From the NCBI RefSeq assembly GCF_041886205.1, contig NZ_CP169030.1: a stretch of 64,000 bases of DNA; one strand, written 5' to 3'. The DNA comes from Escherichia coli. Its GTDB lineage: Bacteria > Pseudomonadota > Gammaproteobacteria > Enterobacterales > Enterobacteriaceae. The translations under genes were made by a program, and so were the position numbers. The notes below the pieces were generated by a model. The model was not told where the DNA came from and did not search any database. It was given only the letters and a program-made list of their open reading frames with translations. Position 1 is the first letter of the stretch. Each line of letters starts with the position of its first letter. Of this stretch, positions 4,253 through 58,016 are shown piece by piece.

Positions 4253-4344
4253 TGCATCTCCTGCATTGGTAAATTATTACCCTGACCAACAGACAGAATC
4301 CCCGGCGGTATAATTCTCACCGGGGATGATGACAGTTAAAGTTG

Positions 4345-5292
4345 TTAAAACGTGTACTTCAGACCGGCCGTCGTAATGAAGTTGTAATTTTCAATTCCAG
4401 CCCCGTTATTATTATGCTCCGAAGTATTATCACTACGGTCGTAAAGAGATGTATCCCCTTTTTTATTTGTGAGACGACTCCATACACCCTCGATGTACAC
4501 TTTTGCCTCTGGGGTAATATAGTAACCGGCATTAACTGCAACAGAATAGTAATTCTGGTTTATTACTTTGCTTCGGAATGTAGTTTGTCTTACATAATGC
4601 TCATCATTATCAGATCCCCTGACCCACCCGCTGTATTTAAATGCACCACCAAACTCAAAATTATCGTAACGGTAGTTTCCTGTCAGACCGACATAAGGAA
4701 TTTTAAAATGTTGTTTATAACCAATCACTTTTATTTTATCAGGTAACGCTCCCGTTTCATTCCGGAAACCACCATTCTCACTATAAATATAAGTTCCTCC
4801 TGTAGCATTAAAACTGTAACGGCTTTCCTGATAACCTGCCATAATAGCAAGGCGATAATCAGATTCTTTTAAAAACCAGCCTTTAACGTTCAAATCAAAT
4901 TCGTTGGCATAATTAAGACGTGTATCAGGATGCCTGCTTTCATCTGTCCATGTTCCGGGAGTCCCGGAATCCATCCAGTCCTGATCAACCATATTCCCCC
5001 CCCGACTATTGAGAGTGGTCCAGCCAGCTGCACCAACAGATAACCATGGATTCAGCTCCCAGTTAACGGCGCCTTTAAGAATGGCGGCGTTACTGTATTT
5101 CCAGTCCAGTTGGCTGACTTTACGTCCACCTTCTTCAGGCTCATAAACCCGTTCTTTTGTTTTGCCACTCAGTGTACCTAAATTAATCTCTGTACTTATT
5201 TTCTCCGGGCCGAAGAAATCAGAAGCAGAAGCTTCCTGAGAACTGAATACCACAGGTGCTGCAAGCATAATTGCCAGAAGCTTAGTTTGCAT
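4345..5292 (-). CDS. ompT: omptin-family outer-membrane protease (plasmid OmpT-like)
   Basis: 315 aa; clearly homologous but not identical to E. coli OmpT by recall (shared DQDWMDS, TWTDESRHPDT and C-terminal GLKYTF). Confidence 0.85.
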   Translation of the reverse strand: MQTKLLAIMLAAPVVFSSQEASASDFFGPEKISTEINLGTLSGKTKERVYEPEEGGRKVSQLDWKYSNAAILKGAVNWELNPWLSVGAAGWTTLNSRGGNMVDQDWMDSGTPGTWTDESRHPDTRLNYANEFDLNVKGWFLKESDYRLAIMAGYQESRYSFNATGGTYIYSENGGFRNETGALPDKIKVIGYKQHFKIPYVGLTGNYRYDNFEFGGAFKYSGWVRGSDNDEHYVRQTTFRSKVINQNYYSVAVNAGYYITPEAKVYIEGVWSRLTNKKGDTSLYDRSDNTSEHNNNGAGIENYNFITTAGLKYTF

Positions 5293-5940
5293 AACAATGA
5301 CTCCCTTCTGTCACTTCTACATATGTATATGATTCTTTTGATGTACACCGGTAAGTCAATTATCAGTACTTAATTTGTTTAGCTTTTGTTTAACCTAATA
5401 GTTTGTTTTTGTGAGGTATATCAATATATCTAAATGATATGCGGTAATGGTGTGTATGTCATCTGAACATTCTTTATGGATAGTCTGTATAGACAGAACT
5501 TAATGTTAACATGGCTATTTGTTTATATAGATAGTCATTTTTATCTTAATACATCTGGCACATTATCTATTTGATATACTGATATGGTTCTGTAATGAGG
5601 TAAGAGTTTAGCTACTAAATGGAGGGCCTGACGCAACTACAGGATATGAGGTGAAAATATCGTCCTGATATGGCATAGTGAAATATTATAGTCGCTTTCT
5701 TAACTTATCCGGGCCTGGATAAAGTCCTCAGTTTTTTCTGATGGATTGTTGGATTTTTTAAGATTTTTTTATCTTTTTACTTCAAAAAAGATCTTGTAAT
5801 TATTGCAGTAAGTTGCATTGATAATGATTTTGCTATTGTATACAAAAAAACAGACCTCATAGCATAGCACTTTTAAATTTGTATATTACAATATACATAA
5901 AAGTCATGTCAATTATCACTTAAGGTTTGTTAAAAATCAT

Positions 5941-8900
5941 ATGAGCCATAAATTTTATTATGTTATCTCTTTCCTTCTCTCTCTGGCATCATCACCTTCG
6001 ATAGGTGATGAAATGAATTGCCAACGTTATTTTTGTTTTGTTAATGGCATTGTTGAAATAAGGACTGCTCCCGAAGAATATCAAAACAAGCCAGTTCTGG
6101 TTGGTTCACAAAGTGACGGGCTATTAATTATTGATAATCATGCGGATATTGAGGATGGTATATTTTCCACACTTCATATTGGTAATGGATATAATGGTGC
6201 TGTTGATGTTATTAATGGTGCTGCTTTACATATGGATAATCGTTCAGGAAGCGCACCTCTTATTGTAGGTGCATTCGGTAATGATATTGCAGGAAAACTT
6301 AATATTTCTGGCAGAAACAGTATAGTATCATATAGAGATACGCCCAGCAGTTCTGGACATAACGAATCTATTTATGTCGGTTTTGGGCTTGGTGCAACAG
6401 GATGGATTAATATTTTTAATGGTGGAGTATTTGAAGTTTTAAATAGTACTAATATATATGTAGGTTCAGATACTCCTGGTGGGGGAGATGGCAGTATCGT
6501 GATTGATGGCAGCAACAGCAAGATGACCGCAGATTTTTCTGAGGCATATGTCGGGCTTTATGGTAATGGTGATATTTCCTTAAAAAATGGAGGTCAGTTA
6601 TCTGCCAGTAACTTATATATAGGAGGTAATGGTAGAGCCATTGTTAATATAAGCGGTACTGATTCCAGATTAATTGCAAATATGATAACCATATCAGGAA
6701 GTTCTGGTGCGCCGGGCATTTACATAGCAGATCAAGGAATTCTTAATGTAGATAACTACATCAATATAACTACGGCAAATGACACAAAAGGGAAATTATT
6801 CATCAATAGCGACATGCCTGGAACTATTGAATCTAAAGGGATTCTTTTTGGTGTTGGGAAGGCAGAGTTGATTTTTAAACATAACTCTGACAATTATGCT
6901 TTTTCATCACCTTTAATTTCTAAAAACACAGGTAATGGTATAGTTAATGCAGAGAGTGGCGAGACGCATCTCACGGGAGATAATACCGATTATAGTGGTT
7001 TGTTGAATATTTTACCCACGGCAAGTATTGATATCAGTAGTCAAAAAAATATCGGCAAGTCAGTAATTGTTAATAATGGGGTGCTGCAAATAACCAGCCA
7101 GGATGACTGGACATTCAATAATAATATGACTGGTAACGGTTATCTTAATGTTCATACTGGTGGACATAATTTTGCTTTCCAGAATTCAACGAATACACAG
7201 GAATTTACAGGTACGCTGGCATTGTCTGATACACTCTTTGACTTGAGTGACGACAATACCACTGCACTAACTTCAGCACTAGTGCTTGCTGGGGTCGGGA
7301 GTGTGATAACTGCAGGTACTGGAACTCAGGTTATTAACGGATTTTCATTTGACGGTGGAGCCGTAAATTTCGGTGCCGTAACTCAGGGAGCTCAGCAAAC
7401 TGAATCCCAGATTCAGGTTACTGACAATCTGTATATCAATGGAAATGGTGCTGTACGGGTTTCAACACCCACAGATGTGAATGGTATTCCACAGGTCATT
7501 AATTCTTCACTTTCATTGCTGGAACAGGATGACAGTAATGCCACCATTAAACTTGTAGATGCAAGTTCCGCAGTTGTAAAGGGGAATGGTGGAAACCTTC
7601 AACTGCAGGATGCCTCCGGGCAAGTAATATCCTCAGGTAAGCAAAGGAATATAGTTCAACAGGGAAAAAATGTTGCTAAGGGGGTATACGATTATCGTCT
7701 GACATCAGGGCCCCATAATGATGGACTGTATATAGGTTATGCTCTGACTCAGCTTGATTTGCTAGCCTCTGGTGTTGATGCACTCGTGCTTGATGCTGCA
7801 GGTACAACTGGAAATGCAGCAGACATGAGTGCCCGTATCACAGGTGCCGGAGACCTGGCTTTCAACAGTCAGAAAGGAGAAACCGTTTCTCTGTCGAATC
7901 AGGATAATGATTACACAGGAGTTACAGCTATCCGCGGTGGTAATGTCCTCATGAACAGCAACAGTGTTCTGGGACAGACCAGCGAGATTCGTCTGGCTAC
8001 TGATACCCGGCTGGACATGAACGGTCATAGCCAGACTGTTGGTAAGCTTAATGGTGCTGCAGGTTCTGTACTGAACATCAATGGCGGGAATTTGACCCTG
8101 ACTGATGATGGCGTATCTGCCGGTACTCTGACTGGAGGTGGCTTCCTGAATATCAGCGGCGGCGTCCTCGATATTACAGGAGGCAACCACACTTTTGCTG
8201 TCAGCACCATAATAGCAAAAGATGCAACTGTCCGAATGAACGATGTTTCCGGACTGGGTACTGGTAACATCAGTAACGCTGGGACATTATCTCTTACTCA
8301 TGCCTCAGGCTTGCTAAGTAATAATCTGAGTGGTTCTGGTACAGTATCTTTGATCAATAGTGATACCCAGATTTCAGGAAATAACAGTAACTACTCAGGG
8401 CTGTTTGTAGTAGATACCAGCTCTCAGTTGACTGCCACTGGAGCGCAGAATCTTGGGATTGCTTCCGTGAGTAACCGTGGAATCTTGCAGCTGAACAACA
8501 CAACAGACTGGCAACTTATAAATAATGTTACTGGAACCGGTAATGTCCGTAAAACCGGTTCCGGTTCACTGACTGTCCGAAGCAATGCTGCCTGGAGCGG
8601 ACAGACAGATATTGATGACGGCTCTCTGATTCTTGGGCAATCTGATGCACCTGTCATGCTCGCCAGTAGCCTGGTCAATATTGCAAAGAACGGTAAACTT
8701 ACCGGATTTGGTGGCGTAGTAGGGAACGTAACCAATAGTGGAAGCCTTGACCTGCGATCGGCGGCTCCGGGAAATATTCTGACGATTGGAGGTAACTACA
8801 CCGGTAATAATGGCACGCTGCTCATTAACACAGTGCTGGATGATAGCTCTTCTGCAACCGACAAACTGGTAATTAAAGGCGATGCGTCCGGTAAGACCCG

Positions 8901-10128
8901 AGTGGCTGTTACGAATGTTGGTGGTTCAGGCGCTAATACGCTGAATAGTATTGAAGTTATTCATGTTGATGGTAATGCAGCTAACGCTGAATTTATTCAG
9001 GCCGGACGTATAGCGGCCGGCGCTTATGACTATACTCTTGGACGTGGGCCGGGAAGCAACTATGGAAACTGGTATCTGAGCAGTAGTAAAAATACTCCAG
9101 AACCAAGGCCTGATCCTGAACCTACTCCGGAAGGGCATGATAACAACCTGCGTCCGGAGGCTGGCACATACACCACAAACCTCGTTGCTGCGAACACCAT
9201 GTTTGTGACCCGCCTTCATGAACGTCTGGGGCAGACGCAATACGTCGATGCAATTACCGGAGAACCGAAAGCAACCAGTATGTGGATGCGCCATGAAGGA
9301 GGACATAACCGCTGGCGCGACGGTTCTGGTCAACTGAAAACTCAAAGTAATCGTTATGTGATTCAACTGGGTGGTGATATCGCACAATGGGATTGGGGTG
9401 GAACTAACCGCTGGCATCTGGGGGTTATGGCTGGTTACGGTAACAACCATAGCAGTACAGGTGCAGTACGCACCGGATACCATTCAAAAGGCAGCGTAAA
9501 TGGTTACAGTACCGGGCTGTATGCTACCTGGTATGCTGATGATGAGACTCATAACGGAGCTTATCTGGATACCTGGGCTCAGTACGGCTGGTTCGATAAC
9601 CATGTGAAAGGTGACGGACTGCCGGGTGAATCCTGGAAATCAAAAGGACTTACCGCCTCACTGGAAACAGGTTATGCCTGGAAAATCGGGGAATTCAGCA
9701 GCAACTATGGCAATCTGAACGAATGGTATGTTCAGCCTCAGGCCCAGCTTGTCTGGATGGGGGTTAAAGCTGATGAACTCTATGAAAGTAACGGTACTCT
9801 TATTGAAAGCACCGGAGACGGTAATGTCCATACCCGTCTGGGCGTGAAAACCTGGATTAAAAGGCTCAATAAAATGGATGATGGTAAATCACGTGAGTTC
9901 AGCCCATTTGTGGAGGTGAACTGGTTGCATAATACCCGTGATTTTGGGGTTCGTATGAACGGCGAACCGGTGTATCAGGATGGTACCCGTAATATCGGAG
10001 AGGTCAAAACTGGTGTGGAAGGTCAAATAAATCCCCATCTGAACCTGTGGGGGAATGTGAGAGTTCAAGTTGGTGATAAAGGGTATAACGACACCTCAGC
10101 CATGCTGGGTGTGAAGTATACATTCTGA
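5941..10128 (+). CDS. AIDA-type (type Va) autotransporter, 1395 aa
   Basis: Long Gly/Asn/Thr-rich beta-helix-like passenger; C-terminal region with autotransporter beta-barrel hallmarks ending in KYTF; AT-rich. Confidence 0.75.
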   Translation: MSHKFYYVISFLLSLASSPSIGDEMNCQRYFCFVNGIVEIRTAPEEYQNKPVLVGSQSDGLLIIDNHADIEDGIFSTLHIGNGYNGAVDVINGAALHMDNRSGSAPLIVGAFGNDIAGKLNISGRNSIVSYRDTPSSSGHNESIYVGFGLGATGWINIFNGGVFEVLNSTNIYVGSDTPGGGDGSIVIDGSNSKMTADFSEAYVGLYGNGDISLKNGGQLSASNLYIGGNGRAIVNISGTDSRLIANMITISGSSGAPGIYIADQGILNVDNYINITTANDTKGKLFINSDMPGTIESKGILFGVGKAELIFKHNSDNYAFSSPLISKNTGNGIVNAESGETHLTGDNTDYSGLLNILPTASIDISSQKNIGKSVIVNNGVLQITSQDDWTFNNNMTGNGYLNVHTGGHNFAFQNSTNTQEFTGTLALSDTLFDLSDDNTTALTSALVLAGVGSVITAGTGTQVINGFSFDGGAVNFGAVTQGAQQTESQIQVTDNLYINGNGAVRVSTPTDVNGIPQVINSSLSLLEQDDSNATIKLVDASSAVVKGNGGNLQLQDASGQVISSGKQRNIVQQGKNVAKGVYDYRLTSGPHNDGLYIGYALTQLDLLASGVDALVLDAAGTTGNAADMSARITGAGDLAFNSQKGETVSLSNQDNDYTGVTAIRGGNVLMNSNSVLGQTSEIRLATDTRLDMNGHSQTVGKLNGAAGSVLNINGGNLTLTDDGVSAGTLTGGGFLNISGGVLDITGGNHTFAVSTIIAKDATVRMNDVSGLGTGNISNAGTLSLTHASGLLSNNLSGSGTVSLINSDTQISGNNSNYSGLFVVDTSSQLTATGAQNLGIASVSNRGILQLNNTTDWQLINNVTGTGNVRKTGSGSLTVRSNAAWSGQTDIDDGSLILGQSDAPVMLASSLVNIAKNGKLTGFGGVVGNVTNSGSLDLRSAAPGNILTIGGNYTGNNGTLLINTVLDDSSSATDKLVIKGDASGKTRVAVTNVGGSGANTLNSIEVIHVDGNAANAEFIQAGRIAAGAYDYTLGRGPGSNYGNWYLSSSKNTPEPRPDPEPTPEGHDNNLRPEAGTYTTNLVAANTMFVTRLHERLGQTQYVDAITGEPKATSMWMRHEGGHNRWRDGSGQLKTQSNRYVIQLGGDIAQWDWGGTNRWHLGVMAGYGNNHSSTGAVRTGYHSKGSVNGYSTGLYATWYADDETHNGAYLDTWAQYGWFDNHVKGDGLPGESWKSKGLTASLETGYAWKIGEFSSNYGNLNEWYVQPQAQLVWMGVKADELYESNGTLIESTGDGNVHTRLGVKTWIKRLNKMDDGKSREFSPFVEVNWLHNTRDFGVRMNGEPVYQDGTRNIGEVKTGVEGQINPHLNLWGNVRVQVGDKGYNDTSAMLGVKYTF

Positions 10129-24698: not shown

Positions 24699-24740
24699 TG
24701 AACCGCCCCGGGTTTCCTGGAGAGTGTTTTATCTGTGAAC

Positions 24741-25631
24741 TCAGGCTGCCAGATCATCGTTTCCGATGGAAGCATAATAAGCTTTTTCTGCTTCTGCCGG
24801 AGGAGTATGGCCCAGCCTTTCCAGCAATCGTCGATTGTTATACCAGTCCACCCACGTGAGTGTGGCCAGTTCCACTTCTGCACGGTTTTTCCAGCTCTTA
24901 CGGTGTATTACCTCCGCTTTGTAAAGACCATTGATGCTCTCCGCCATCGCGTTGTCATACGAGTCGCCTGTACTTCCTGTTGATGCCAGTAATCCGGCTT
25001 CCTTAAGCCGCTGTGTGTAGGCCAGCGATACATACTGAGAACCTTTATCACTGTGATGGACCGTGCCGGACGGTCGACGGGCCCATAACGCCTGCTCCAG
25101 TGCATCCAGCACGAATGTCGTTTCCATGGACGATGAGACCCGCCACCCCACGATGTATCCGGCAAACACATCAATGATGAACGCCACATAGACGAAGCCC
25201 CGCCATGTGCTGACGTAAGTAAAATCAGCCACCCACAGCTGGTCAGGTCGTTCTGCCACGAACTGACGGTTTACGCGGTCGCCTGCGGCAACGGCTTTCC
25301 GGCTGATGGTCGTACGGACCTTTTTACCCCGGAGAACACCGGCAAGTCCCATAACCGCCATGAGACGTGCCACAGTGCATCTGGCCACTCTGATACCTTC
25401 CCGTAACAACTGACGCCAGACTTTACGCACACCGTATACCTTGTGATTTTCATCGTATACGCGCTGTATCTCTTTCTTCAGCCAGTCATCGCGCTGCGCA
25501 CGGGCACTGCGTTTATCCGGATGATGTCGCTGTTGCTGACAGTGGTAATACGTTGACGGGGCAATATGCAGTTCGCTGCATAGCGGTCCGACCCCGTACT
25601 GCTCACGCAGCTTATCCAGCAGTGGCATCAT
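24741..25631 (-). CDS. IS3-family transposase OrfB (IS629-like)
   Basis: 296 aa DDE transposase. Confidence 0.8.
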
Positions 25632-25954
25632 TTTTTCCAGAGGCGGTCGAACTCCGCCTTCGCAAAATAAGCGGAAGCCTGGCGAAGGATATCGTTACTG
25701 CGGCGCAGTTCACGATTTTCACGTTCCAGCTCTTTCAGACGCTGACGTTCAGCGGTGGTGAGCCCTCCATCACCGCCCCCGGTATCCCGCTCATGCTGGC
25801 GAACCCAGACACGCAGAGTCTCCGGCGTACAGCCAATCTTTGGAGCAATGGAACAAATTGTCGCCCATTGTGAGTCATATTCGCTCTGACTTTCCAGAAC
25901 CATACGGACTGCCCGTTGACGGACTTCGGGGGAAAAACGAGTATTTTTAGTCAT
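25628..25954 (-). CDS. IS3-family transposase OrfA (IS629-like)
   Basis: 108 aa HTH protein [19 protein letters not shown]... Confidence 0.8.
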
Positions 25955-26008
25955 CCTGTTTACCTCTTTCTCAGGAAGTTTAGTCTCCAGGATTCCCGGG
26001 GCGGTTCA

Positions 26009-27313: not shown

Positions 27314-27646
27314 GTGAAGCTTCACAACGATGACTTCTTTGACGAAGAAGACGTAGAAGTTCTGCGCTTTGATAGTTTTGACGATGCAGTTGAGTGCTGC
27401 GCAGACCTGGGTATTCCGTTCTTTCTGGATGCAGGAAACAAAAAGCTGGTCTTCTGGTTTGTTCGTGTCGATGACGAAGGGTATCCGGAAATAGCCCGCT
27501 GTACGGAACGAGAGTTTGCGACCATTCTTGCCGGTATCAGCGCCGGCGGTATGTACTGCCAGGAATGCGGCACTGTTCACTGGCCGGATGGAGTTACCCC
27601 GCCTTCTGATGCTTCCCCGTTTTGCAGACATCTTGCAGCAGGGTAA
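27314..27646 (+). CDS. hypothetical protein (110 aa) upstream of IS91-family transposase fragments
   Basis: ORF only; acidic N-terminus; function unknown. Confidence 0.3.
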   Translation: MKLHNDDFFDEEDVEVLRFDSFDDAVECCADLGIPFFLDAGNKKLVFWFVRVDDEGYPEIARCTEREFATILAGISAGGMYCQECGTVHWPDGVTPPSDASPFCRHLAAG

Positions 27647-28680
27647 CCGCTGGCTTAACTGGCTGGAGAAGCAGCCGGAAGGGGCAGTGCGTCTGGTGGT
27701 GATTGAGTCAGTGACAAAAATCACGGCGTGCGGGATCACGCTGATGGGGTACACGCAGTGGTGCTGTTCATCACCGGACTGTTGCCACACCAAAAAGGGC
27801 TGCTTCCGGTGTAAAAGCCGTTCCTGCCCACACTGCGGAGTGAAGGCTGGCGCACAGTGGATACAGTATCTGCTGAGTCTGGTCCCCGACTGCCCGTGGC
27901 AGCATATTGTGTTCACACTTCCGTGCCAGTACTGGTCCCTGGTGTTCCACAACCGGTGGTTACTGGCAGAGATGAGCCGTATCGCAGCCGACGTGATCGC
28001 CAGACAGATGTGGAGCCGGGGATATTCACGGTAATCCACACCTGGGGACGTGACCAGCAGTGGTATCCGCATATCCATTTATCGACAACAGCCGGAGGCG
28101 TGACGTCGGCTCTGACCTGGAAAAACCTTCATTTTTACGCCCGTAAGGTGATGAGCATGTGGCGTTACCGGATAACGCGGTTGCTGTCACGGAAATACCC
28201 GGACCTGGTGGTACCGGATGAGCTGGCAGCAGAAGGAAGCAGCAGACGGGAATGGAATCACTTCCTGGACAGTCATTACCGCCGTGGCTGGAATGTCAAC
28301 GTCTCCAGGGGGATGGATAACGCCACACATGTGGCGGTGTACTTTGGCTCTTACCTGAAAAAACCGCCGGTTCTGATGAGCCGTCTGGAGCATTATGCCG
28401 GTCGGGATGAAATTGGTCTGCGTTACAACAGTCACCGGACAAAACGGGAAGAATACTTGGTGATGAGTGGCGATGAATTCATGGAAAGGTTCTCCTGGCA
28501 TGTGGCGGATAAGGGGTTCCGGATGGTGAGTACTACGGGTTCCTGAGTCCGGTGAAGCGCCGGTTGCTGGAAGAGGTGGTGTACGTCATAACGGAGACGG
28601 TGAGAAAAACGGTGAAACAAATCAGGTGGAGAGGGATGTATCAACGATTACTGAAGGTTGACCCGCTGAAGTGTGTGCTG
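27516..28680 (+). pseudogene. IS91-family (HUH rolling-circle) transposase, frameshifted and truncated by IS21
   Basis: Cys-rich zinc-binding segment (CKSRSCPHCG) and HUH-like segment (HTWGRDQQWYPHIHL) split over at least three frames. Confidence 0.5.
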
Positions 28681-28740
28681 TGTCAACGCCACGATTTTTA
28701 ACCGTTATTTGCCATTTTCATGCCCGCTAAAATACTTTCG

Positions 28741-30710
<1,970 letters not shown>

Positions 30711-30821
30711 GTTGATGTCCTTTCTGGTGTGGGAACCTTAAGGAAACAACATGTTGGGTGGAGCGGACAATCCAAATGGTGAATTACCGTCTTATATCAC
30801 TGGCGCTAACAGATCTGTAAT

Positions 30822-33004
30822 ATGAAGATACTGAGGCAGCTGTGGAACCAGAAAGGGCTTGATGCGGCAGTTGAAGATGTACCTGAGGATCGATACGGTT
30901 TCGGTAATATCGCAGAAAATATATCCCGTTCCATCCTTACTCTTCCTCTGGAGGCTTCAAATGTTGTCGGAATAGAAGGTGCATGGGGATCGGGTAAAAC
31001 AAGCCTCCTTAATCTGATCCTGAGAAACCTTGCCCTGAAAAAAGATGCTCACACGCATGTGCTGCATATTTCTCCCTGGCTGAGTGGTGGCAGTCCGGTT
31101 GAAGCGCTCTTTCTTCCGGTTGCCACGGTTATCCAGCAGGAAATGGAAATACGCTATCCCCCGAAGGGCTTCAAAAAGCTCTGGCGTAAATATCTGTTGT
31201 CACCGGAAGCTCAAAAAGTGATTGAGTATGCTCAGGATACTTCATCGCGCGTCCTTCCACTGGTTCAATATATCGGACAGTTTTCCAGCATTATTAACTG
31301 GATAGCAGGCGGAATAAAGGTATTTTCAGACAGCCGTCTGGCTGTTGATCAGAAAACCACGACAAAGCTTCGGGCTGAAATTGCAGGACAACTGGTGAGT
31401 CTGGATCTGAAGTTCATTGTTGTCATGGATGATCTGGACCGACTGGAGCCATCCCAGGTGGCGGAAGTGTTCAGGCTTGTGCGTGCAGTAGCCGATCTGC
31501 CCCGCTTTACCCATATTCTCTGTTATGACAGGCAGATTATCACTCATGCCGTTGAACATGCGCTGAATATCGAAGATGGCAGCCGTTATCTCCAGAAAAT
31601 CATTCAGCTTAGTTTTAAATTACCCCGACCTGAAGCCTTTGATTTACGTAATGAATTTCGCCAGCGGGCTGAGGCTCTATATCAGCAAATTAATAATCAA
31701 CCGCCAGACTCTGGAATGGTAAGGGATCTCATCGCGGTGACTGATACCTATGGTGCCGCACTTTCGACGCCACGGGAAATCCATCAGGCCATTAATTCCC
31801 TGATTTGTGCCTGCTTCAGCTTATACGGGTGACAAACCCGGCTCTGTATGACTGGACAGAGCATTACCTGACAGAACGGTCCGTGATTGAAACCGGTCAG
31901 GGTATGCTTTCTGACGGAGAGAAAGCAGACTTCCGGGAGGGGCTTATCAGATGTATGAAGACGTTCAGGGCATCAAATGCAGACTCGTTTCTGACACTTG
32001 CAGACTGGATCCCAGGTATCAGTGGACATAATGATGAATATCTGAATCTTTTTGAGCCCGTCAGTGAGGATTTTCGTCATATCCAGACGACCGGTAAACG
32101 ACTCAGCAGCCTGACGCACTGGCGATATTATTTTGCCTTCTCCTCACCACAGAATGTTCTGCCACCTGAATTCTTCAGACAGCTTTTTGAACAGGCTGGC
32201 GTATCGGAAAAACAGCAGCAGCTTTCTGAATTGCTGCTCTCAAAAATCAACAGTGTGGGCAGTCTGTCCGGAACCTGGTTTGAACATATACTGAGCAGAC
32301 TGACTCCAGGCCTGATAAGAGAACGTAATTTCGAAGAGTGCGCAGGACTGGTTCATTTTTTCTTCGATCACACCGATGAGGTGAGCACTCGCTTCAGTAT
32401 CCGTAACCCATGGTTTTCCCTGCGTGAAATGGCCATTAATGAGGTTGTACGGCATCTGCTGAAGCATATGCAGGATATTGATGAGACCAGAACGATCACG
32501 CTTATGGAAAAACTGATCGTTACGGGTGCTTCGCCGTTCTGGATAGCCGATTTTATGCGGGATCTTATCTGGGAACATGGACTTGCTCAGAATGCAGTAC
32601 CTTCGCCTTCAGACGCTCTTTTCAGTCGCGATATTACGGAACGGTTGCGTGACAGGTTTGCGGAACGTATGAATCAACCAGAACTTCAGCAACAGCTTCT
32701 CCTGCGCAAGTCTCTTCTCGGGTATCTCTACGCCTGGAGAGACATGAGTTCAGGTGAAACCGTGAAGCAATGGGTCAGAGAAGTTACTACCACTGATGAA
32801 GGCCTTGTTAACCTGTTGATACGATTACAGACCAGTGTCTTCAGCTCCCACCGAGGGGCATATCGCCGGATTGCGCGTGACCAGGTCAGTCCGTTCTTTG
32901 ATGACTGGCCAGCAGTCGAAGAGAAGTTGAAGGTTATGCTGTCCGGCAACGAGCTGACTCCGGAGCAGGAAGCGCTCAAAACAGCGCTGGAAAATGACGA
33001 CTGA
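30822..33004 (+). pseudogene. KAP-family P-loop NTPase, split by a frameshift near 31805-31832 (about 730 aa if repaired)
   Basis: Walker A GAWGSGKTS, Walker B FIVVMDDLDR and PREIHQAINSL motif in ORF 30822-31832; continuation in the next frame at 31805-33004; IS21 ends 10 bp upstream of the ATG. Confidence 0.6.
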
Positions 33005-33013
33005 CCAAAAATT

Positions 33014-33036
33014 AAGGCCGCTTAGCGGCCTTTTTC
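33014..33036. terminator. bidirectional terminator hairpin between convergent genes (AAGGCCGC-TTA-GCGGCCTT then T-run)
   Basis: Read directly. Confidence 0.5.
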
Positions 33037-33053: not shown

Positions 33054-33953
33054 TCAGGCGCTTAATGCTTTATCCTTGTCAAAAGGAACACCGGCATACG
33101 CAAGCTCACTCAGCAGTTTGCGTTTCCATCCACCATGCTCATCAAGCTCGGTATAGAGAACCCCGGCAAGATCTGAAGGGATTTCGATATCTCCCTTCCT
33201 GAGTACAAGTACTTTCCCGCGTCCAAGCTTCCCGGCGAAATATCCGAGCTCATACAGGACATTCTGGCGTGCGCGGAGACGTGTGCTTTCAGATGCCAGA
33301 GCACTGCCGCTATCGTCGGGCGTCATCAGCACGATGGCAAAACTGACATCCCCTGACTCTGCTTCAAATTTCTCGATAATCGTCCTGGAGCCGTCAGGAC
33401 GTTCTGAAAGAATGATTTCCTCAAGACCTATCCGGGATATAAAACGGGCAACAGACTGAAGGGCATCATTATCATGGCCATGAACAATAAAAATTTTTCG
33501 GGAAACCGGCCGAAACACTGCAGGCTCAGGATCGTGTTGGTTTTCCACATACAACTGGTAATCGCGCACGAACGGGGCAACTAATGACGACGTGAATTTT
33601 CGAATGGATTCAATAATGTTTCGATCATAGAAAAATGTATGACAGAAATTAAAGGAAAAATTGTTATCGTCTGCCATTTTCTCGATCAGCAGCAACTTCA
33701 GGCCCAAAATATCAGCGGGCTCATCAGGCCACTGTAGAACAGCGGAACCAGCCATGCTGGATTCAGTATCTTCACTCCTGGCCAGAAAGGTATCAAGTTC
33801 AACATTGCGGGTCAGATGTGCATTAACTGACTGCAGATTCTCTGAGTTCAAGAGCCGGGCCAATTGCTTAAGAGGTTGCTGATAGTTCTGAACGTCAGCG
33901 CGCTGAAGGTCGAATACGCAATTTTTAAGTGACTGAAAGATATCAATTGCCAT
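33054..33953 (-). CDS. protein with C-terminal TIR-like (COG4271-type) domain and unknown N-terminal domain
   Basis: 299 aa; C-terminal KIFIVHGHD ... AIVLMTPDD ... RARQNVLYELGYFAGKLGRGKVLVL matches recalled hallmarks of the TIR-like domain found in CBASS/Pycsar-type effectors. Confidence 0.5.
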   Translation of the reverse strand: MAIDIFQSLKNCVFDLQRADVQNYQQPLKQLARLLNSENLQSVNAHLTRNVELDTFLARSEDTESSMAGSAVLQWPDEPADILGLKLLLIEKMADDNNFSFNFCHTFFYDRNIIESIRKFTSSLVAPFVRDYQLYVENQHDPEPAVFRPVSRKIFIVHGHDNDALQSVARFISRIGLEEIILSERPDGSRTIIEKFEAESGDVSFAIVLMTPDDSGSALASESTRLRARQNVLYELGYFAGKLGRGKVLVLRKGDIEIPSDLAGVLYTELDEHGGWKRKLLSELAYAGVPFDKDKALSA

Positions 33954-34233
33954 CCTGCCCGCTCTCCTGTCTTTGTTGTTCTGCTCTGTCCAGAATCTGT
34001 TGGCGCAGATTTTCTTTCATGTGTTCGATTAATGGGCTGACCATCGGATTAGTGGCATAACCAGAAGCGCGTTCGTACACCATGGAATAGGCTTCCTGAA
34101 TCGCGTTCTCAATGCTGACAGGATCGTTAGCATCGAAGTGGACATCATAACTTCCGTTTAATGCCTCTGTTGCTCTCTCAACCTCTTTTAGCTGTTTCTG
34201 CATTTTGTCTAAACCTGTGATTTTGACGCTCAT
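33943..34233 (-). CDS. small hypothetical protein (96 aa), translationally coupled to the TIR-like gene
   Basis: Stop overlaps downstream start by 11 nt; helical, charged; no recognisable domain. Confidence 0.4.
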   Translation of the reverse strand: MSVKITGLDKMQKQLKEVERATEALNGSYDVHFDANDPVSIENAIQEAYSMVYERASGYATNPMVSPLIEHMKENLRQQILDRAEQQRQESGQDGN

Positions 34234-34528: not shown

Positions 34529-34759
34529 ATGAGAACCGTATCGATATTTAAAAATGGCAACAACCGCGCCATCCGTCTGCCTCGTGATCTGGATTTTGAG
34601 GGGGTGAGCGAGCTCGAGATCGTCCGGGAAGGGGACAGCATCATCCTGCGCCCCGTCCGGCCAACCTGGGGATCATTCCTAGAGTACGAAAAAGCCGATC
34701 CAGATTTTATGGCGGAGCGCGAGGATGTTGTCAGCGACGAAGGGCGATTTAACCTGTGA
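34529..34759 (+). CDS. vapB: VapB-type antitoxin (AbrB/SpoVT fold)
   Basis: 76 aa; overlaps vapC start by 4 nt; resembles VagC/VapB of enterobacterial plasmids by recall. Confidence 0.8.
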   Translation: MRTVSIFKNGNNRAIRLPRDLDFEGVSELEIVREGDSIILRPVRPTWGSFLEYEKADPDFMAEREDVVSDEGRFNL

Positions 34760-35172
34760 ACAAGACTTATATGCTTGATACCTGTATCTGCTCGTTCATC
34801 ATGCGTGAACAGCCAGAAGCCGTCCTGAAGCGTCTGGAGCAGGCGGTGCTACGCGGCCACCGTATAGTGGTCTCGGCCATCACCTACTCTGAAATGCGCT
34901 TCGGGGCTACCGGCCCAAAGGCCTCACCACGTCACGTCCAACTGGTCGATGAATTCTGCGCCCGCCTCGATGCCATCCTGCCCTGGGATCGCGCCGCAGT
35001 AGACGCCACCACGAAGATTAAAGTGGCACTGCGGCTGGCCGGGACGCCGATCGGCCCGAACGACACGGCGATTGCCGGGCACGCCATCGCCGCCGGGGCG
35101 ATACTGGTAACGAATAATACAAGAGAATTTGAGCGAGTGCCTGACCTGGTGCTGGAAGACTGGGTGAAGTAA
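34756..35172 (+). CDS. vapC: VapC PIN-domain toxin
   Basis: 138 aa; N-terminal MLDTCI with acidic Asp typical of PIN domains. Confidence 0.8.
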   Translation: MNKTYMLDTCICSFIMREQPEAVLKRLEQAVLRGHRIVVSAITYSEMRFGATGPKASPRHVQLVDEFCARLDAILPWDRAAVDATTKIKVALRLAGTPIGPNDTAIAGHAIAAGAILVTNNTREFERVPDLVLEDWVK

Positions 35173-35333: not shown

Positions 35334-37472
35334 TCAAGCGATACGGGCAACCGAGCTCTGGTTTGCTGCCGGTGGCAGGGCGATGAGCTTGTCACATTCC
35401 ATAATCACGTACTCCGGGATGAGATCGAATCTGGACGGATCTAGTTGACAGATGAACTCATTTTCAATGTGGTACGTTTCGTTAACGAATTTTCGTATTA
35501 CCGGATGGTCCTGATCCAGTTCCAGTAAACGGAATACCTGCAGTTTTTCATAGCCGTTACGACAGCGACGGTACAGGTTTTTTATTTCATCTGGGCTGCT
35601 GACGAGAGCCTGAAGTCGCGGGTAATCAAAACTGTCCACATACTCCCGGATATCCCGCAAGGCCTGCTGAATTTTCTCAGGAGCCATTTTGGGATAGCCC
35701 GAGCCCGCAGCGGCAGGCTCGCGATAATCCAGCGGGACGACGCGTCGATGGAATAGATTGGATAGAAGCTGATAAGCATCACCACGTTCGTCAACGATTT
35801 CAAAGTAGCGACGAAGATAGATGAGCTTAATGATCTCCTCACAGTCTGCTGACGCGGTGATGGATTTGCAGATCTGCATGAATGTCATGATATCGCCGTC
35901 GTTAACAGGTAATTCTTCTATGACTCCAGCAGACAGGCGCAGGCAGGAGGCGGTCACCTGATTACTGAACAACCTTCTGACTGACTTCAGCGTGTCAATC
36001 ACAGGCTCCACGTCATGCGTCAGCATAAGTACAGTCCGGTTCTTCAGGCATTCACCACTTGCACGTCTGAACAGCATTTCAAGAATGGCAAACTTCTTGT
36101 TTTTATCAAAAGAAGATATGGGATCATCAAGGATAATCAGTCCCGGGTTTTTTGACAGGCATTCATACATGAATAACACAATCGCAAAGGCGTTCCGTTC
36201 TCCATAGCTGAGATGCTGGCTACCGCCGCTGACGTACCCGTCAAAATCTATGTGTCGTAGCCTGAGTTTTCTCTGCTCTCCCTCGCCGGCTATATCCACC
36301 CTGTATTTATAGCCTGCATAAGTGAGGAAATTATTGATGTTTGTTTTGTGCTGTGCGATCAGCCGGATCATGCTGTCCCGGTGCCGGTTAATTTTTCCCT
36401 GCAGCGGTCCGGCAAGGTTTATCAGGTCCATAAGGGCCGCGTTCAGTCTGTCGGTGATCCCCTGCATGAGTTCGGATTGCAGATCAGGGAAGAACTGCAG
36501 GTCAATCAACCTGGCAGTGAGCACCTCCCGAACGTTCTGCTGTTCCTGCAGGCTGAAAACATTCAGGCCTCTCAGCGCAGTGAGTTTCTCTGTCAGCGTA
36601 TCGGTCTGGCGTTTCAACGCCACTAGGTACTCGATATGTTCGGCTTCCGGACCGTTCTGAAGCATAGTAATGGCCAGAAGGCGTTCTCTGGCGCTCTCCG
36701 TCAGGTAATTACCGAGGTTTTCCACCAGTCTGATGATAGCGGTCAGGTTTTTAATGGTGGATTTATCGTATTCCTCTCTGACTTGGCGAATTTGTGCTTC
36801 CTTTCCCGTGATATCACCGGTACAGAACGGACAGCAGCCATCCGAAAGGGGCGAAAACTCGAGTCCCTTTGTCTGCCAGTCAATCCATTCCACGCGGCGT
36901 TCACTGCGGATGTAGGGTTGATAGTTCTCAAGACCAGCCGGAATGTGGTGTATTTTATTTCCGCCTGACAGACCTCTCATGCCGGTTGAAGAACGTGAAA
37001 TCCCGGAACTGGTTGATCTGAAAGCATTACTGAGTTCCTGTAGATGGTCTATCAGAGAGTTCAGCTCAGTGTGATCCGTGAAAACAGCCCGGATCTTTTG
37101 CGTCATTTCTTCTATTTCACGCTCTCTTTCCGCATGGGCTTGATTGCGGATAAGAATATTAAAGCTATCACTGATGAGCTCGTCCGGTTGGAACGTAAAC
37201 TGACTGACGTACTCCTCGTTGAAGCACATCACGTCCCCAATCCCGTCAGCACCGATGACAATGGGCCCGGTGCTATCGGGGTTTTCTCCGCGCAGCCGGA
37301 AGGGTATCAGTGCCTGTAGTCCCTGAATGTCGTCCCGCGCCGCACAGCTTATGGCCCGTGACAGCGTACTTTTTCCAGTACCATTTGGCGCAAACTTAAT
37401 GTTCAGTTTATCGGCAGTGAGGGTGATATGTGCTCGTACGATGTTATTGCAGTGGCGTATTTCAATGTCCAT
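35334..37472 (-). CDS. RloC/Rad50-like ABC ATPase with CxxC motif in the inter-lobe insert and an uncharacterised C-terminal domain
   Basis: 712 aa; Walker A APNGTGKST near N-terminus; CCPFCTG about residue 213; signature-like LSYGERN, Walker B LIILDDPISSFD and H-loop LTHD about residues 415-480; roughly 230 aa beyond the ATPase. Confidence 0.55.
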   Translation of the reverse strand: MDIEIRHCNNIVRAHITLTADKLNIKFAPNGTGKSTLSRAISCAARDDIQGLQALIPFRLRGENPDSTGPIVIGADGIGDVMCFNEEYVSQFTFQPDELISDSFNILIRNQAHAEREREIEEMTQKIRAVFTDHTELNSLIDHLQELSNAFRSTSSGISRSSTGMRGLSGGNKIHHIPAGLENYQPYIRSERRVEWIDWQTKGLEFSPLSDGCCPFCTGDITGKEAQIRQVREEYDKSTIKNLTAIIRLVENLGNYLTESARERLLAITMLQNGPEAEHIEYLVALKRQTDTLTEKLTALRGLNVFSLQEQQNVREVLTARLIDLQFFPDLQSELMQGITDRLNAALMDLINLAGPLQGKINRHRDSMIRLIAQHKTNINNFLTYAGYKYRVDIAGEGEQRKLRLRHIDFDGYVSGGSQHLSYGERNAFAIVLFMYECLSKNPGLIILDDPISSFDKNKKFAILEMLFRRASGECLKNRTVLMLTHDVEPVIDTLKSVRRLFSNQVTASCLRLSAGVIEELPVNDGDIMTFMQICKSITASADCEEIIKLIYLRRYFEIVDERGDAYQLLSNLFHRRVVPLDYREPAAAGSGYPKMAPEKIQQALRDIREYVDSFDYPRLQALVSSPDEIKNLYRRCRNGYEKLQVFRLLELDQDHPVIRKFVNETYHIENEFICQLDPSRFDLIPEYVIMECDKLIALPPAANQSSVARIA

Positions 37473-41755: not shown

Positions 41756-43333
41756 TTATCCTCGTTTTTCCCAAAACTGTTTTGCCAGTTCGCTCAGAGC
41801 GCTAGTTAACTGAGCGACAGATTTCGCACTTTGCAAATTATTCTGCCCGGTCTGTACATTGGTATCAGCAGCATCGCGTATATTGATAATACTGCGGTTT
41901 ATGTCTTCACTTACTGCTCCCTGCTGCTCGACCGCAGTCGCTATTTGCGCGTTCATGTCGGTAATTTCGTTAACGCGTTGGCCAATTCCATCAAGAGCTG
42001 TAGCTGCTTCCTCTGCGTGAGCTACACTCGTGTGCGCTTGCCGACTACTTTGCTCCATGACTGTAACAGCGGATTGCGCTCGCTCTTGTAGAGCGCTGAT
42101 CATGCTTTGAATATCCGTTGTCGATTGCTGTGTGCGAGCAGCAAGACTGCGAACCTCATCGGCGACAACAGCAAAACCACGCCCCTGCTCACCAGCACGC
42201 GCGGCCTCAATTGCTGCGTTGAGTGCCAACAAATTCGTTTGCTCGGCGATCCCTCGTATAACGTCAAGAACTTTTGATATCTCGTTACTTTGACCTTCAA
42301 GCTCATGAATAACCTGAGTGGCTTGCCTAATTTCACCTTCAAGGGCAGTGATTGACTGGCTTGTGTGGGCTACCAGACGCTGGCCAGATGCCGTCTCAGT
42401 GTCTGCTCTTCCGGCCGCATCTGCAGCATGCTGTGCATTGCTCGCAACCTCTTGAATGCTTGCCACCATTTGGTTTACTGCCGTTGCTATTTGATCTGTC
42501 TCTGCCTGCTGCTCAACTGTAAGTACATTGCTTGACTCAATATCCTTTAGTAGGCCTCGGGTGTGTTCGCTAAGCCGATTTGATGCATCACCTATGCGAC
42601 CTACTATGGCGCCTGTTTCAGCTTGCATCATTCGTAAAGCAAACTCTATTTGGCCAAACTCATCGGTGCGCCCAGTGTAGAGGGATTGACTTAATGGGTT
42701 ATTGGAAATATTCTTGGCTCTTTCAACCAGTCTTCCAAGAGGAGAGAGAATAGCCAAAACACTAACAGAGCTTAAGCTTCCTGACATTAAAGTGGCTAAC
42801 AATAAGCTGCTTATTGATGTATCAGTAAGCATGCCGGCAGCCATTGCGCTTGATATAATACTACCCCATATGAGCAAGAGTATTTTCACGGAAAAGCTAG
42901 CAGCCAATTTCGGCCTCGCGGCCTTCCCGCTTCTCAATTGAGCATATAATTTTTCCGCAGCCAAAACCTGCTCAGGTTCAGGCTTGGTCCTTACAGACTG
43001 GTATTCAACAATCGAACCATTCTTAGCTATTGGCGTTACATAAGCACTTACCCAATAGTGGTCGCCATTTTTACAGCGATTTTTTACTAGCCCCATCCAT
43101 GAGCGGCCAGATTTTAATGTACTCCACATATGCTCAAATGCAGCAGGCGGCATATCTGGGTGTCTTACGATGTTGTGAGGCTGGCCTAATAGTTCTTCCT
43201 CAGTGAAACCACTGATTTTAATGAAGTCAGGATTAACGTACGTGATATGGCTTTGAGGGGAGGTAGTCGAAAGAATATTGGCATCTTTTGGGAGTTCTAA
43301 GTTTCGACCCGTCACTGGTAAATTCTGGCGCAT
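41756..43333 (-). CDS. methyl-accepting chemotaxis protein with PAS domain (Tn1721 orfI-like)
   Basis: 525 aa; PAS-like N-terminus, transmembrane segments, MCP signalling domain. Confidence 0.8.
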
Positions 43334-50968: not shown

Positions 50969-52888
50969 CTAAGTTATTTTATTGAACATATATCGTACTT
51001 TATCTATCCGACTATTTGGACGACGGGGCTGGCAAACAGGTTCACCGGTAGTAACATGGTACCCTTTTAACTCTGTTAAACAAACACTACGTCCATTTGT
51101 AAAGAAAGTTAAATCACTACGATATTCTTGAATACACCGAGCAGGGATTTCTCCACTAAGAATGACCTCATTATTTTTCAATTGAGTGTCTACGATGTTC
51201 GCACAATATTTAGGAGCATCGTTGTATGCTCGTGAAAGATATTCCTGTGGCGCATAAATTTTAAAACTAAGATATGGCTCTAACAATTCTGTTCCAGCTT
51301 TTTTTAAGACTTGTTCCAATACAATAGGAGCAAGCATCCGAAAATCTGCTGGGGTACTAACAGGGCTATAGTATAAGCCATACTTAAAACAGATTTTACA
51401 GTCCGTCACATTCCAACCATACAATCCTTGTTCACAGCCATAGCGTATCCCTTCCATAACTGCATTTTGAAATGATTGATTTAAGTATCCAAGAGAAACC
51501 GAGCTCTCATACTGCATTCCACTTCCCAACGGAAGCGGTGATACAGATAAACCAATGGAAGCCCAGAAAGGATTTGGCGGCACTTCGATGTGAATGGTAT
51601 ATTCTGCATTTTTTAACGGTCTCTCCATATAAATGACTGTAGGCTCTTTTAGTTCTATCTCCACATGATACTTTTCTTGCAACAGTGCACTAATCACTTC
51701 CATTTGTACTTTCCCTAAGAAAGAAAGTATAATTTCATGTGTCGTAGAATCCACGTAATATCGTAGAAGCGGATCACTATCTGAGATTTCCAAAAGGGCA
51801 TCAAGCAACATTTCTCTCTGTTCAGGTTTACTCGGTTCAACAGTTGTTTGTAGTAGAGGGTGCGGATTTTCAATCTTTTTTCTCTGTGGCAATAGTTTTG
51901 TATCTCCAAGAACACTATTTAACTTCAAAAACTCATTTTGCAAAATAACAATTTCCCCGGAATAAGCCTTATCGATTTTACATAATTCACCATTTATTGA
52001 AGTATACATTTCTGTAATTTTTATTTTTTCCTTTTCCGATATTCTAACCGAATCTCGCAAATGCAGTACGCCACTATAAAGACGTATATATGCAAGACGT
52101 TGTCTTTTTTTTGTATATTCAATTTTGAAAACATTTCCGCAAAGTTCAGACTGACCTCGATGTGTTGATGAATAAAATTTATTCGTAATCACTTCTATAA
52201 GGTTATCAATCCCTATATTGTTTTTTGCACTTCCATGATAAAGAGGGAACAGAGAACAATTCTGAAATCTTATGCTTTCCTCTTGTTCGAGTTCCAATGC
52301 TTCTAATGATTTACCGGACATATATTTCTCTAAAAGGTCATCGTTTCCCTCTATTACCGTATCCCATTGTTCAGATTCGGTAAAGTTCGTCACACACATA
52401 TTAGGATACAGTTCTACCTTCTGTTTGATTACAATTTCGGCAGAAAGTTTCTCTTTAATATCCTGATAAACCGTTGATAAATCAATTCCATTTTGGTCAA
52501 TCTTATTGATAAAAAAGATTGTGGGAATCCCCATTTTCCTAAGTGCATGAAATAATATACGAGTTTGTGCTTGTACGCCATCTTTTGCAGAAATCAGTAG
52601 AATTGCCCCATCTAAAACTGATAATGAACGATATACTTCTGCTAAGAAATCCATATGTCCTGGCGTGTCTATGATGTTCACCTTCGTATTTTCCCACTGA
52701 AAAGAGGTTATTCCTGTCTGAATTGTAATTCCTCTCTGACGTTCTAAAAGCGTATTATCCGTCCTCGTTGTACCTTTGTCCACGCTTCCTAATTCTGTAA
52801 TCGCTCCACTGTTATATAATAAGCTTTCTGTTAAGGTAGTTTTTCCCGCATCAACATGAGCTAAAACTCCAATATTAATAATTTTCAT
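50969..52888 (-). CDS. tet(M): Tet(M) ribosomal-protection tetracycline resistance protein
   Basis: 639 aa from [39 protein letters not shown]...; translational GTPase fold; very close to recalled Tet(M). Confidence 0.95.
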
Positions 52889-52903
52889 GTGATTTTCCTC
52901 CAT

Positions 52904-55049: not shown

Positions 55050-58016
55050 ATGCCGCGTCGCTTGATCCTCTCGGCCACGGAGCGGGACACCCTGCTTGCG
55101 CTGCCGGAAAGCCAGGATGACCTGATCCGCTACTACACCTTCAACGACTCCGACCTGTCGCTGATCCGCCAGCGACGCGGCGACGCCAACCGCCTCGGCT
55201 TCGCCGTGCAGCTCTGCCTGCTGCGCTACCCCGGTTACGCGCTGGGAACCGACAGCGAGCTGCCCGAGCCGGTCATCCTGTGGGTGGCGAAGCAAGTCCA
55301 GGCCGAGCCGGCGAGCTGGGCAAAGTACGGCGAGCGCGACGTGACCCGTCGCGAGCATGCCCAGGAACTGCGCACCTACCTGCAACTGGCCCCGTTCGGC
55401 CTGTCCGACTTCCGCGCCCTGGTGCGCGAGCTAACCGAGCTGGCCCAGCAGACCGACAAAGGCTTGCTGCTGGCCGGTCAGGCCCTGGAGAGCCTACGGC
55501 AGAAACGACGCATCCTGCCGGCGCTGAGCGTGATTGACCGGGCCTGCTCGGAAGCCATTGCGCGAGCCAATCGGCGGGTCTACCGCGCCCTGGTCGAACC
55601 ACTCACGGACTCGCATCGGGCCAAGCTGGACGAGCTGTTGAAGCTCAAGGCCGGCAGCAGCATCACCTGGTTGACCTGGCTGCGCCAGGCACCGCTGAAA
55701 CCCAACTCTCGGCACATGCTGGAACACATCGAGCGGCTGAAGACATTTCAGTTGGTGGACTTGCCCGAAGGCCTGGGCCGGCACATCCACCAGAACCGCC
55801 TGCTCAAGCTGGCCCGCGAGGGTGGGCAGATGACGCCCAAAGACCTCGGTAAGTTCGAGCCGCAGCGCCGCTACGCGACCCTGGCCGCCGTGGTGCTGGA
55901 GAGCACCGCGACCGTGATCGATGAGCTGGTCGATCTGCATGACCGCATCCTGGTCAAGCTGTTCAGCGGCGCGAAGCACAAGCATCAGCAGCAGTTCCAG
56001 AAGCAGGGCAAGGCGATCAACGACAAGGTGCGCCTGTACTCCAGGATCGGCCAGGCGCTGCTGGAAGCGAAGGAAAGCGGCAGCGACCCCTATGCCGCCA
56101 TCGAGGCGGTGATTCCCTGGGACGAGTTCACCGAGAGCGTCAGCGAGGCCGAGCTGCTGGCCCGGCCGGAAGGCTTCGACCACCTGCACCTGGTCGGCGA
56201 GAACTTCGCCACCCTGCGCCGTTACACGCCGGCCTTGCTGGAGGTGCTGGAACTGCGCGCCGCGCCGGCCGCGCAAGGCGTGCTGGCAGCCGTGCAGACC
56301 CTGCGTGAGATGAACGCCGACAACCTGCGCAAGGTGCCGGCCGATGCACCCACGGCCTTCATCAAGCCGCGCTGGAAGCCGCTGGTGATCACCCCGGAAG
56401 GCCTCGACCGGAAATTCTACGAAATCTGCGCCCTGTCCGAGCTGAAGAACGCCCTGCGCTCCGGCGACATCTGGGTCAAGGGCTCGCGGCAGTTCCGCGA
56501 CTTCGACGACTACCTGCTGCCGGCCGAGAAGTTCGCCGCACTCAAGCGCGAGCAGGCCCTGCCCCTGGCGATCAACCCGAACAGCGACCAGTACCTGGAA
56601 GAGCGTTTGCAGCTGCTGGACGAGCAGTTGGCCACCGTCACCCGCCTGGCCAAGGACAACGAGCTGCCCGATGCCATCCTCACCGAGTCAGGGCTGAAAA
56701 TCACCCCGCTGGATGCGGCGGTGCCGGATCGGGCGCAGGCGCTGATCGACCAAACCAGCCAGTTACTGCCGCGCATCAAGATCACCGAACTGCTGATGGA
56801 CGTGGACGACTGGACGGGCTTCAGCCGCCACTTCACCCACTTGAAGGACGGGGCCGAGGCCAAAGACAGGACGTTGCTGCTGTCCGCAATCCTCGGTGAT
56901 GCGATCAACCTCGGGCTGACCAAGATGGCCGAGTCGAGCCCCGGCCTGACCTACGCCAAGCTGTCCTGGCTGCAAGCCTGGCACATCCGCGACGAAACCT
57001 ATTCGGCGGCCTTGGCCGAGCTGGTCAACCACCAGTATCGCCACGCCTTTGCCGCCCACTGGGGCGACGGCACGACCTCATCCTCCGATGGCCAGCGCTT
57101 CCGCGCGGGTGGCCGGGGCGAGAGCACCGGGCACGTCAACCCGAAGTACGGTAGCGAGCCGGGACGGCTGTTCTATACCCATATCTCCGACCAGTACGCG
57201 CCGTTCAGCACCCGCGTGGTGAATGTCGGCGTCCGCGATTCCACCTATGTGCTCGACGGCCTGCTGTACCACGAGTCCGACCTGCGGATCGAGGAGCACT
57301 ACACCGACACGGCCGGCTTCACCGATCACGTCTTTGCCCTGATGCACCTGCTAGGCTTCCGCTTCGCGCCGCGCATCCGCGACCTCGGCGAAACCAAGCT
57401 GTACGTGCCGCAGGGCGTGCAAGCCTACCCGACGTTGCGCCCGCTGATCGGCGGCACCCTGAACATCAAGCACGTGCGTGCCCACTGGGACGACATCCTG
57501 CGCCTGGCCAGCTCGATCAAGCAGGGCACCGTCACCGCCTCGCTGATGCTGCGCAAGCTCGGCAGCTACCCGCGCCAGAACGGACTGGCCGTGGCCCTGC
57601 GCGAGCTGGGCCGGATCGAGCGCACGCTGTTCATCCTGGACTGGCTGCAAAGTGTTGAACTGCGCCGCCGCGTGCATGCCGGCCTGAACAAAGGTGAGGC
57701 GCGCAACTCGCTGGCCAGGGCGGTGTTCTTCAACCGCCTTGGGGAAATCAGGGATCGGAGCTTCGAGCAGCAGCGCTACCGGGCCAGCGGCCTCAACCTG
57801 GTGACGGCGGCTATCGTGCTGTGGAACACGGTGTACCTGGAACGCGCCACCCAGGGGTTGGTCGAGGCCGGCAAGCCGGTGGACGGCGAGCTGCTGCAAT
57901 TCCTGTCGCCGCTGGGCTGGGAGCACATCAACCTAACCGGCGATTACGTCTGGCGGCAGAGCCGCAGACTGGAAGACGGGAAGTTTCGGCCCTTACGGAT
58001 GCCCGGAAAACCTTAG
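55050..58016 (+). CDS. tnpA: Tn3-family transposase TnpA
   Basis: 988 aa; reads toward the terminal inverted repeat. Confidence 0.9.

Follow-up and report, generated by a model that had tools for sequence, protein, structure and literature searches.

An apparently decayed pifA gene beside IS21 on an IncF-type plasmid of Escherichia coli

The window analyzed here is a stretch of 64,000 nucleotides from an IncF-type plasmid of Escherichia coli (contig NZ_CP169030.1). Directly downstream of an IS21 element it carries two open reading frames on the plus strand, one specifying 336 amino acids and starting with ATG, the other specifying 399 amino acids and starting with TTG (Table 1). The two frames differ and overlap by 28 nt. 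Translation of the 336-aa ORF revealed a Walker A motif (GAWGSGKTS), a Walker B motif (KFIVVMDDLD), and the sequence PREIHQAINSL. A Pfam search placed the domain KAP_NTPase (PF07693) on residues 28-327 of this ORF with an E-value of 1.6e-43, covering model positions 2-286 of 293. The ORF thus shares the KAP_NTPase domain and both Walker motifs with the KAP family P-loop NTPases. A preliminary description of the same DNA had assigned the locus to this family on the strength of the three motifs and had reported the 336-aa and 399-aa ORFs; the assignment holds, and the coordinates given for both ORFs were exact.

Table 1. Coordinates of features in and around the split gene
Feature	Position	Strand	Basis or remark
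IS91-family transposase pseudogene, truncated and frameshifted, left flank of IS21	27609-28680	+	RefSeq annotation of NZ_CP083264 mapped by blastn
IS21, 2131 bp, TG...CA ends	28681-30811	-	Ends read in the sequence; RefSeq names IS21 in a 100%-identical plasmid
istB	28741-29541	-	IS21 gene, upstream of pifA
istA	29538-30710	-	IS21 gene, upstream of pifA
pifC remnant, last three codons GAT CTG TAA	30812-30820	+	Comparison with pifC-bearing plasmids
pifA 5' fragment (336-aa ORF)	30822-31832	+	Native residues 1-328 (KAP NTPase domain), then out-of-frame CACFSLYG and a TGA stop
Deletion junction, single kept copy of TTCCCTGATTT	31796-31806	+	Alignment to intact pifA
pifA 3' fragment (399-aa ORF)	31805-33004	+	Native residues 343-741 in the native frame; no ribosome-binding site at the 5' end
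Bidirectional terminator-like hairpin, 8 pairs (6 G-C), between convergent pifA and TIR genes	33014-33032		Also in the intact locus

Positions 30812-33004 were compared by megablast with 5426 complete E. coli genomes. Matches were obtained in 297 records, 275 of them at an identity of at least 99%, and nearly all of the latter were plasmid-borne. The matching records are annotated with one coding sequence for a "KAP family P-loop NTPase fold protein", immediately preceded by "pifC: transcriptional repressor PifC". On plasmid F (NC_002483), pifC is followed by a gene for WP_000698737.1, a protein of 741 amino acids. Plasmid p1 of strain JNU (NZ_CP083264) encodes a protein with this accession, and the window was 100% identical to that plasmid on either side of a 43-bp gap. 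With the PADLOC model for PifA (PDLC02361), the intact protein gave an end-to-end match of 963 bits that covered positions 2-718 of the 720 in the profile, and it contains KAP_NTPase at residues 28-331 (E = 6.3e-43). In the window, the 336-aa ORF matched positions 2-314 of the PADLOC model (461 bits) and the 399-aa ORF positions 329-718 (453 bits), and 14 consensus positions were absent. The identity to NZ_CP083264, the accession shared with plasmid F, and the end-to-end match to the PADLOC model together identify the locus as pifA, the "phage inhibition by F" gene of plasmid F, split in two.

The window contained the 336-aa and 399-aa ORFs instead of a single uninterrupted frame of about 741 codons. 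As the homologs consist of a single 741-aa coding sequence and none was organized as two genes, an arrangement of two separate genes is not the normal one and was ruled out, in agreement with the earlier proposal that one gene had been split. The pifC-pifA arrangement was not found in the window either: IS21 lies upstream of the gene, and the last 9 nt of pifC are left. A role of pifC as the regulatory gene of the pif operon is in line with its annotation as a transcriptional repressor gene and with the title of a 1985 paper by Miller et al. (cited in PMC5696584). Within the NTPase domain of pifA, weak similarity was seen to the PADLOC defense NTPases QatA and PDC-S20, with E-values from 1e-15 to 1e-9. 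These scores are far too low for membership in either family; the NCBIfam QatA model, for instance, gave 39 bits where 600 are required. No PDB chain was matched by the sequence of PifA at E <= 0.01.

PifA is a founding member of the KAP family, which was named after Kidins220/ARMS and PifA (PMC8594841, PMC13001434). Against phage T7 it acts by membrane depolarization and nucleotide leakage leading to abortive infection, and it is triggered by T7 gp1.2 and also by the capsid protein gp10 (PMC8594841, PMC13001434). Its range is very narrow, comprising T7 and one relative among the phages of the BASEL collection (PMC8594841, PMC13001434). The protein was reported to be devoid of the transmembrane helices typical of the KAP family (PMC13001434). 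PifC is described as the regulator of the pif operon that also inhibits transfer of IncP and IncW plasmids (PMC5696584, with Miller et al. 1985 cited there).

Comparison with intact homologs, by which the preliminary description had proposed to locate the indel, showed that 43 bp are missing between two copies of the repeat TTCCCTGATTT. The window sequence was identical to intact pifA over 995 nt from the left and over 1209 nt from the right; these stretches overlap by 11 nt, and the window is 43 bp shorter. In intact pifA the two TTCCCTGATTT copies lie 43 bp apart; they form the perfectly matching 11-nt core of a longer repeat of 15 nt, which has one mismatch. The window is short of one copy together with the spacer of 32 bp, i.e. 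codons 329-342 plus 1 nt, and the deleted PifA residues 329-342 read FLYPGMRDFVYFPD. In contrast to pifA of plasmid F, the window copy is consequently frameshifted. The frame changes at 31806/31807, which lies inside the interval of 31805-31832 suggested earlier, and the break is positioned right at the C-terminal boundary of the KAP NTPase domain. Because the deletion splits the frame, the window copy would be a pifA pseudogene rather than a functional member of the family.

A loss bounded precisely by short direct repeats bears the textbook mark of replication slippage or microhomology-mediated deletion. Promotion of the deletion by a hairpin was ruled out, as the intact 71-nt segment folded no better than its shuffled versions (-3.5 kcal/mol, z = -0.29). 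In view of the lack of a significant hairpin in the spacer, plain slippage between direct repeats would be enough. The preliminary description had also raised the possibility of a homopolymer sequencing error. Neither this nor another small-indel error accounts for the break, since the difference consists of one clean 43-bp block between 11-bp direct repeats.

Searches with the 41-nt sequence spanning the deletion junction gave no match in 5426 complete E. coli genomes, 72,556 PLSDB plasmids, a GTDB set with one genome for each species, or JGI metagenome contigs. The 336-aa product, looked up as an exact sequence, had no record either. As a positive control for these short-query junction searches, the intact 61-bp segment was searched as a 61-mer and was found in 273 complete E. 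coli records. Even pifA alleles with only 90% identity were still exactly 2226 bp long. Since the junction was found in none of these four collections, the 43-bp deletion is most likely private to the window sequence and a recent mutation.

A singleton allele fits a private mutation, but it would also fit an artefact of assembly or sequencing, and the same is true of a junction unique in all four collections and of a product without a record. If the 43-bp gap were such an artefact, the real pifA would be intact, though still deprived of pifC and of its ribosome-binding site. We consider this quite unlikely. A loss of 43 bp is not of the homopolymer or base-calling error type, and a gap bounded precisely by direct repeats is what real slippage classically leaves behind. 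An 11-bp repeat would, moreover, be too short to collapse at the word sizes usual in assembly. The surrounding 11 kb contained no other indel relative to the closest relatives: upstream of the break, 5798 bp were 100% identical to NZ_CP083264, and downstream of it, 5213 bp differed from NZ_CP127254 by one mismatch.

The split gene could in principle have remained partly functional, either through the NTPase fragment alone or through this fragment together with a C-terminal fragment started internally. The 336-aa ORF indeed keeps nearly the whole KAP_NTPase domain, and an in-frame ATG at 31955, corresponding to native Met393, follows the sequence GGGAGGGG, for which a duplex energy of -10.3 kcal/mol was calculated. 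The spacing of about 12 nt between GGAGG and this ATG is long, however, and a protein started there would be devoid of residues 329-392. In addition, the 336-aa ORF itself is preceded by neither its promoter region nor a Shine-Dalgarno sequence, and no homolog is built as two genes. The deletion allele is a singleton, which argues that it is not maintained by selection. Residual function of the split gene is therefore regarded as very improbable.

The element upstream of pifA corresponds to IS21 in its istA and istB genes, its length of 2131 bp, and its TG...CA ends. Its right terminal repeat starts at 28681 (TGTCAACGCC...), and its left one ends at 30811 (...GGCGCTAACA), abutting pifA; in the best register, the two ends share 22 matches in the first 40 positions. 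The last base of the element at 30811 and the pifA ATG at 30822 are separated by 10 nt, just as the preliminary description had stated. In the intact comparison locus, a single nucleotide separates the end of pifC from the pifA ATG. Homology of the window to pifC-bearing plasmids begins at 30811/30812, and thus only the last three codons of pifC survive. On the opposite side of IS21, the window ORFs at 27516-28034 and 27857-28546 proved to be parts of the IS91-family transposase pseudogene.

For IS21-family insertions, 5-bp repeats have been reported (PMC10122671). No target-site duplication of 4-5 bp was found around the IS21 copy of the window: the flanks differ, with GCTG (or TGCTG) to the left of the element and GATC (or GATCT) to its right. 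Unlike a simple insertion, the window copy lies without such a duplication between two unrelated truncated genes, and both properties indicate that IS21 marks a deletion or recombination junction. Of the earlier view that IS21 had inserted upstream of the gene, the part stating that native upstream sequence has been replaced is correct. A simple insertion, on the other hand, is at odds with the location of the element within the final codons of pifC, the missing target-site duplication, and the truncated IS91-family transposase gene opposite. The sequence lost at the junction comprises the rest of pifC and all that preceded this gene, including the expected site of the pif promoter and operator. 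The pifA Shine-Dalgarno sequence was half replaced in the process, as GGAG is gone (native ACGGAGATC, window TAACAGATC). The calculated energy of the duplex with the 16S anti-Shine-Dalgarno sequence at pifA was -6.6 kcal/mol for the native and -1.5 kcal/mol for the window sequence. In comparison with pifA of plasmid F, the window copy therefore has neither pifC with the sequence preceding it nor a Shine-Dalgarno sequence of its own.

Among public plasmids, the identical IS21-pifA junction was present in NZ_CP083264, NZ_CP127254, and NZ_CP074368 only. In NZ_CP083264 and NZ_CP127254 pifA is intact at the junction, and in NZ_CP127254 IS21 itself is interrupted by IS100. In NZ_CP074368 (strain ZYB62), pifA is interrupted by ISEc23, an IS66-family element, about 86 nt after the ATG (locus positions 4124-6651). 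The IS21 junction is thus shared, in contrast to the 43-bp deletion, and from this distribution we infer that the IS21 event most likely preceded the deletion.

Two further candidates for carriers of the junction, NZ_CP119579 and NZ_CP070293, were rejected because IS21 resides elsewhere in them: in NZ_CP119579 it is located between vapB and vapC (locus positions 5044-7013), and in NZ_CP070293 inside the TIR gene (locus positions 3507-5476). Including the 3' end of pifC in the window, IS21 was thus observed at three sites in a pifA-TIR-vapBC region of about 4 kb. This could reflect a local hot spot or simply chance.

The preliminary description had further suggested that the gene might be expressed from an outward promoter of IS21. 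Of the two promoter elements of IS21, the -10 box is situated in the left terminal repeat and the -35 box in the right, and they make up a strong promoter only where copies lie in tandem (PMC10122671). In the window, pifA abuts the left, istA-proximal end of the element and is divergent from istA. The -10 box of the left terminal repeat reads into the element and away from pifA, and the outward-facing -35 box is located at the far end, 2.1 kb off, and points away from pifA. Expression from an outward IS21 promoter is unlikely as proposed, because the outward -35 box belongs to the right repeat and pifA is at the left end. A scan with the sigma-70 consensus detected no promoter into pifA. The scan was also blank for the native sequence in front of pifC, which is expected to include the pif promoter, so that its blank near pifA carries no weight. 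One weak site on the plus strand was found at 28709-28736, in the right end of IS21 and 2 kb upstream of the gene. Read-through into pifA from upstream, antisense through IS21, may occur.

We also considered whether the deletion was selected. In such a scenario, loss of PifC through IS21 would leave PifA unregulated and harmful, and knock-outs of pifA would be favored. Two of the four carriers of the IS21-pifA junction do have a second, independent pifA lesion, namely the 43-bp deletion in the window and ISEc23 in NZ_CP074368, while the two others keep a perfectly intact pifA. The authors of the BASEL study obtained no functional ectopic pifA construct, a failure that they did not blame on toxicity (PMC8594841). 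Truncation or disruption of pifA is, however, common: about 17% of the E. coli records are affected, with 50 of 297 covering less than 80% of the gene, and two of four is not distinguishable from this background (binomial P about 0.14). Further lesions, an IS903B insertion in pifA of NZ_CP178668 and a 1-bp deletion in pifA of NZ_CP191553, occurred in records in which pifC is retained or pifA is covered over its whole length. With promoter region and Shine-Dalgarno sequence lost, finally, less expression of pifA is predicted and not more. Selection for the deletion is unlikely on these grounds. If it had nevertheless taken place, orphaned pifA would have been purged repeatedly and independently in a small plasmid lineage, providing a natural example of a defense gene lost after its regulator.

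Decay of pifA in two steps explains the observations best, and we assign it a probability of about 0.88. It would combine an IS21-associated loss of regulator, promoter region, and ribosome-binding site with a 43-bp slippage deletion. In the first step, a rearrangement associated with IS21 and shared with the three public plasmids would have placed the left end of the element in the last codons of pifC. The gene for the PifC repressor, the upstream sequence expected to hold its promoter and operator, and the GGAG in front of pifA would have been removed by this event. A later deletion of 43 bp between the 11-bp direct repeats, by replication slippage or microhomology-mediated deletion, would represent the second step. 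Translation would then end after the NTPase domain, yielding 328 native and 8 other residues, and the C-terminal 399 residues would be left without a start signal.

The suggestion in the preliminary description that the gene may be inactivated is in line with this reading: with the 43-bp deletion on the one hand and the loss of promoter region and Shine-Dalgarno sequence on the other, the gene is most likely inactive. Judged from these changes, pifA would be silent or non-functional, and the plasmid would be deprived of both T7 exclusion and a supply of PifC. Two predictions follow: phage T7 should not be excluded by the window plasmid, and the plasmid should supply no PifC, the regulator of the pif operon and inhibitor of IncP and IncW transfer. 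Gene and family are already known, and the window allele is an ordinary pseudogene. For annotation, the two ORFs are to be treated as one pifA pseudogene and not as two KAP NTPase genes. Surveys of defense systems may take from this example that matches to defense-gene models can be decayed copies.

Further genes were noted in the vicinity of pifA. A gene for a TIR-domain protein of 299 amino acids (33054-33953, minus strand) is convergent with pifA; it matched the PADLOC candidate PDC-S35 with an E-value of 2e-65 and also TIR effector models. It is overlapped by a 96-aa ORF (33943-34233, minus strand). The convergent TIR-domain gene and the 96-aa ORF are found downstream of pifA on plasmid F as well, where the same TIR protein accession, annotated as "nucleotide-binding", is encoded beside pifA and is followed by the 96-aa ORF under a different accession. 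An AAA-family ATPase of 712 amino acids (35334-37472, minus strand) matched the PADLOC candidate PDC-S06 end to end with 948 bits and exhibited weak LmuB-, PrrC-, and AbiL-like similarity. Together with vapBC (34529-35172), the pifA, TIR, and 712-aa ATPase genes form a small cluster of defense genes that is conserved on many IncF plasmids.

On the other side of IS21, an IS3-family element of about 1.3 kb (24702-26008; transposase ORF 24741-25631, minus strand) was present in the window and absent from the otherwise identical NZ_CP083264. By its coordinates it interrupts an EAL-domain gene annotated in that plasmid. Two large autotransporter genes on the plus strand, at 5941-10128 (1395 aa) and 10762-16071 (1769 aa), encode proteins with C-terminal beta-barrel domains; the 1395-aa protein is AIDA-I/MisL-like and stayed below every equivalog cut-off. 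A plasmid-borne gene at 41756-43333 (minus strand) specifies a methyl-accepting chemotaxis-like protein of 525 amino acids with a PAS domain, which was also below all equivalog cut-offs. The window furthermore carries tet(M), a ribosomal-protection tetracycline resistance gene (50969-52903, minus strand), which scored 1515 bits against a cut-off of 1420. It adjoins a Tn3-family transposase gene (55050-58016, plus strand), and a gene for a TcuC-like transporter is located at 58568-59863.
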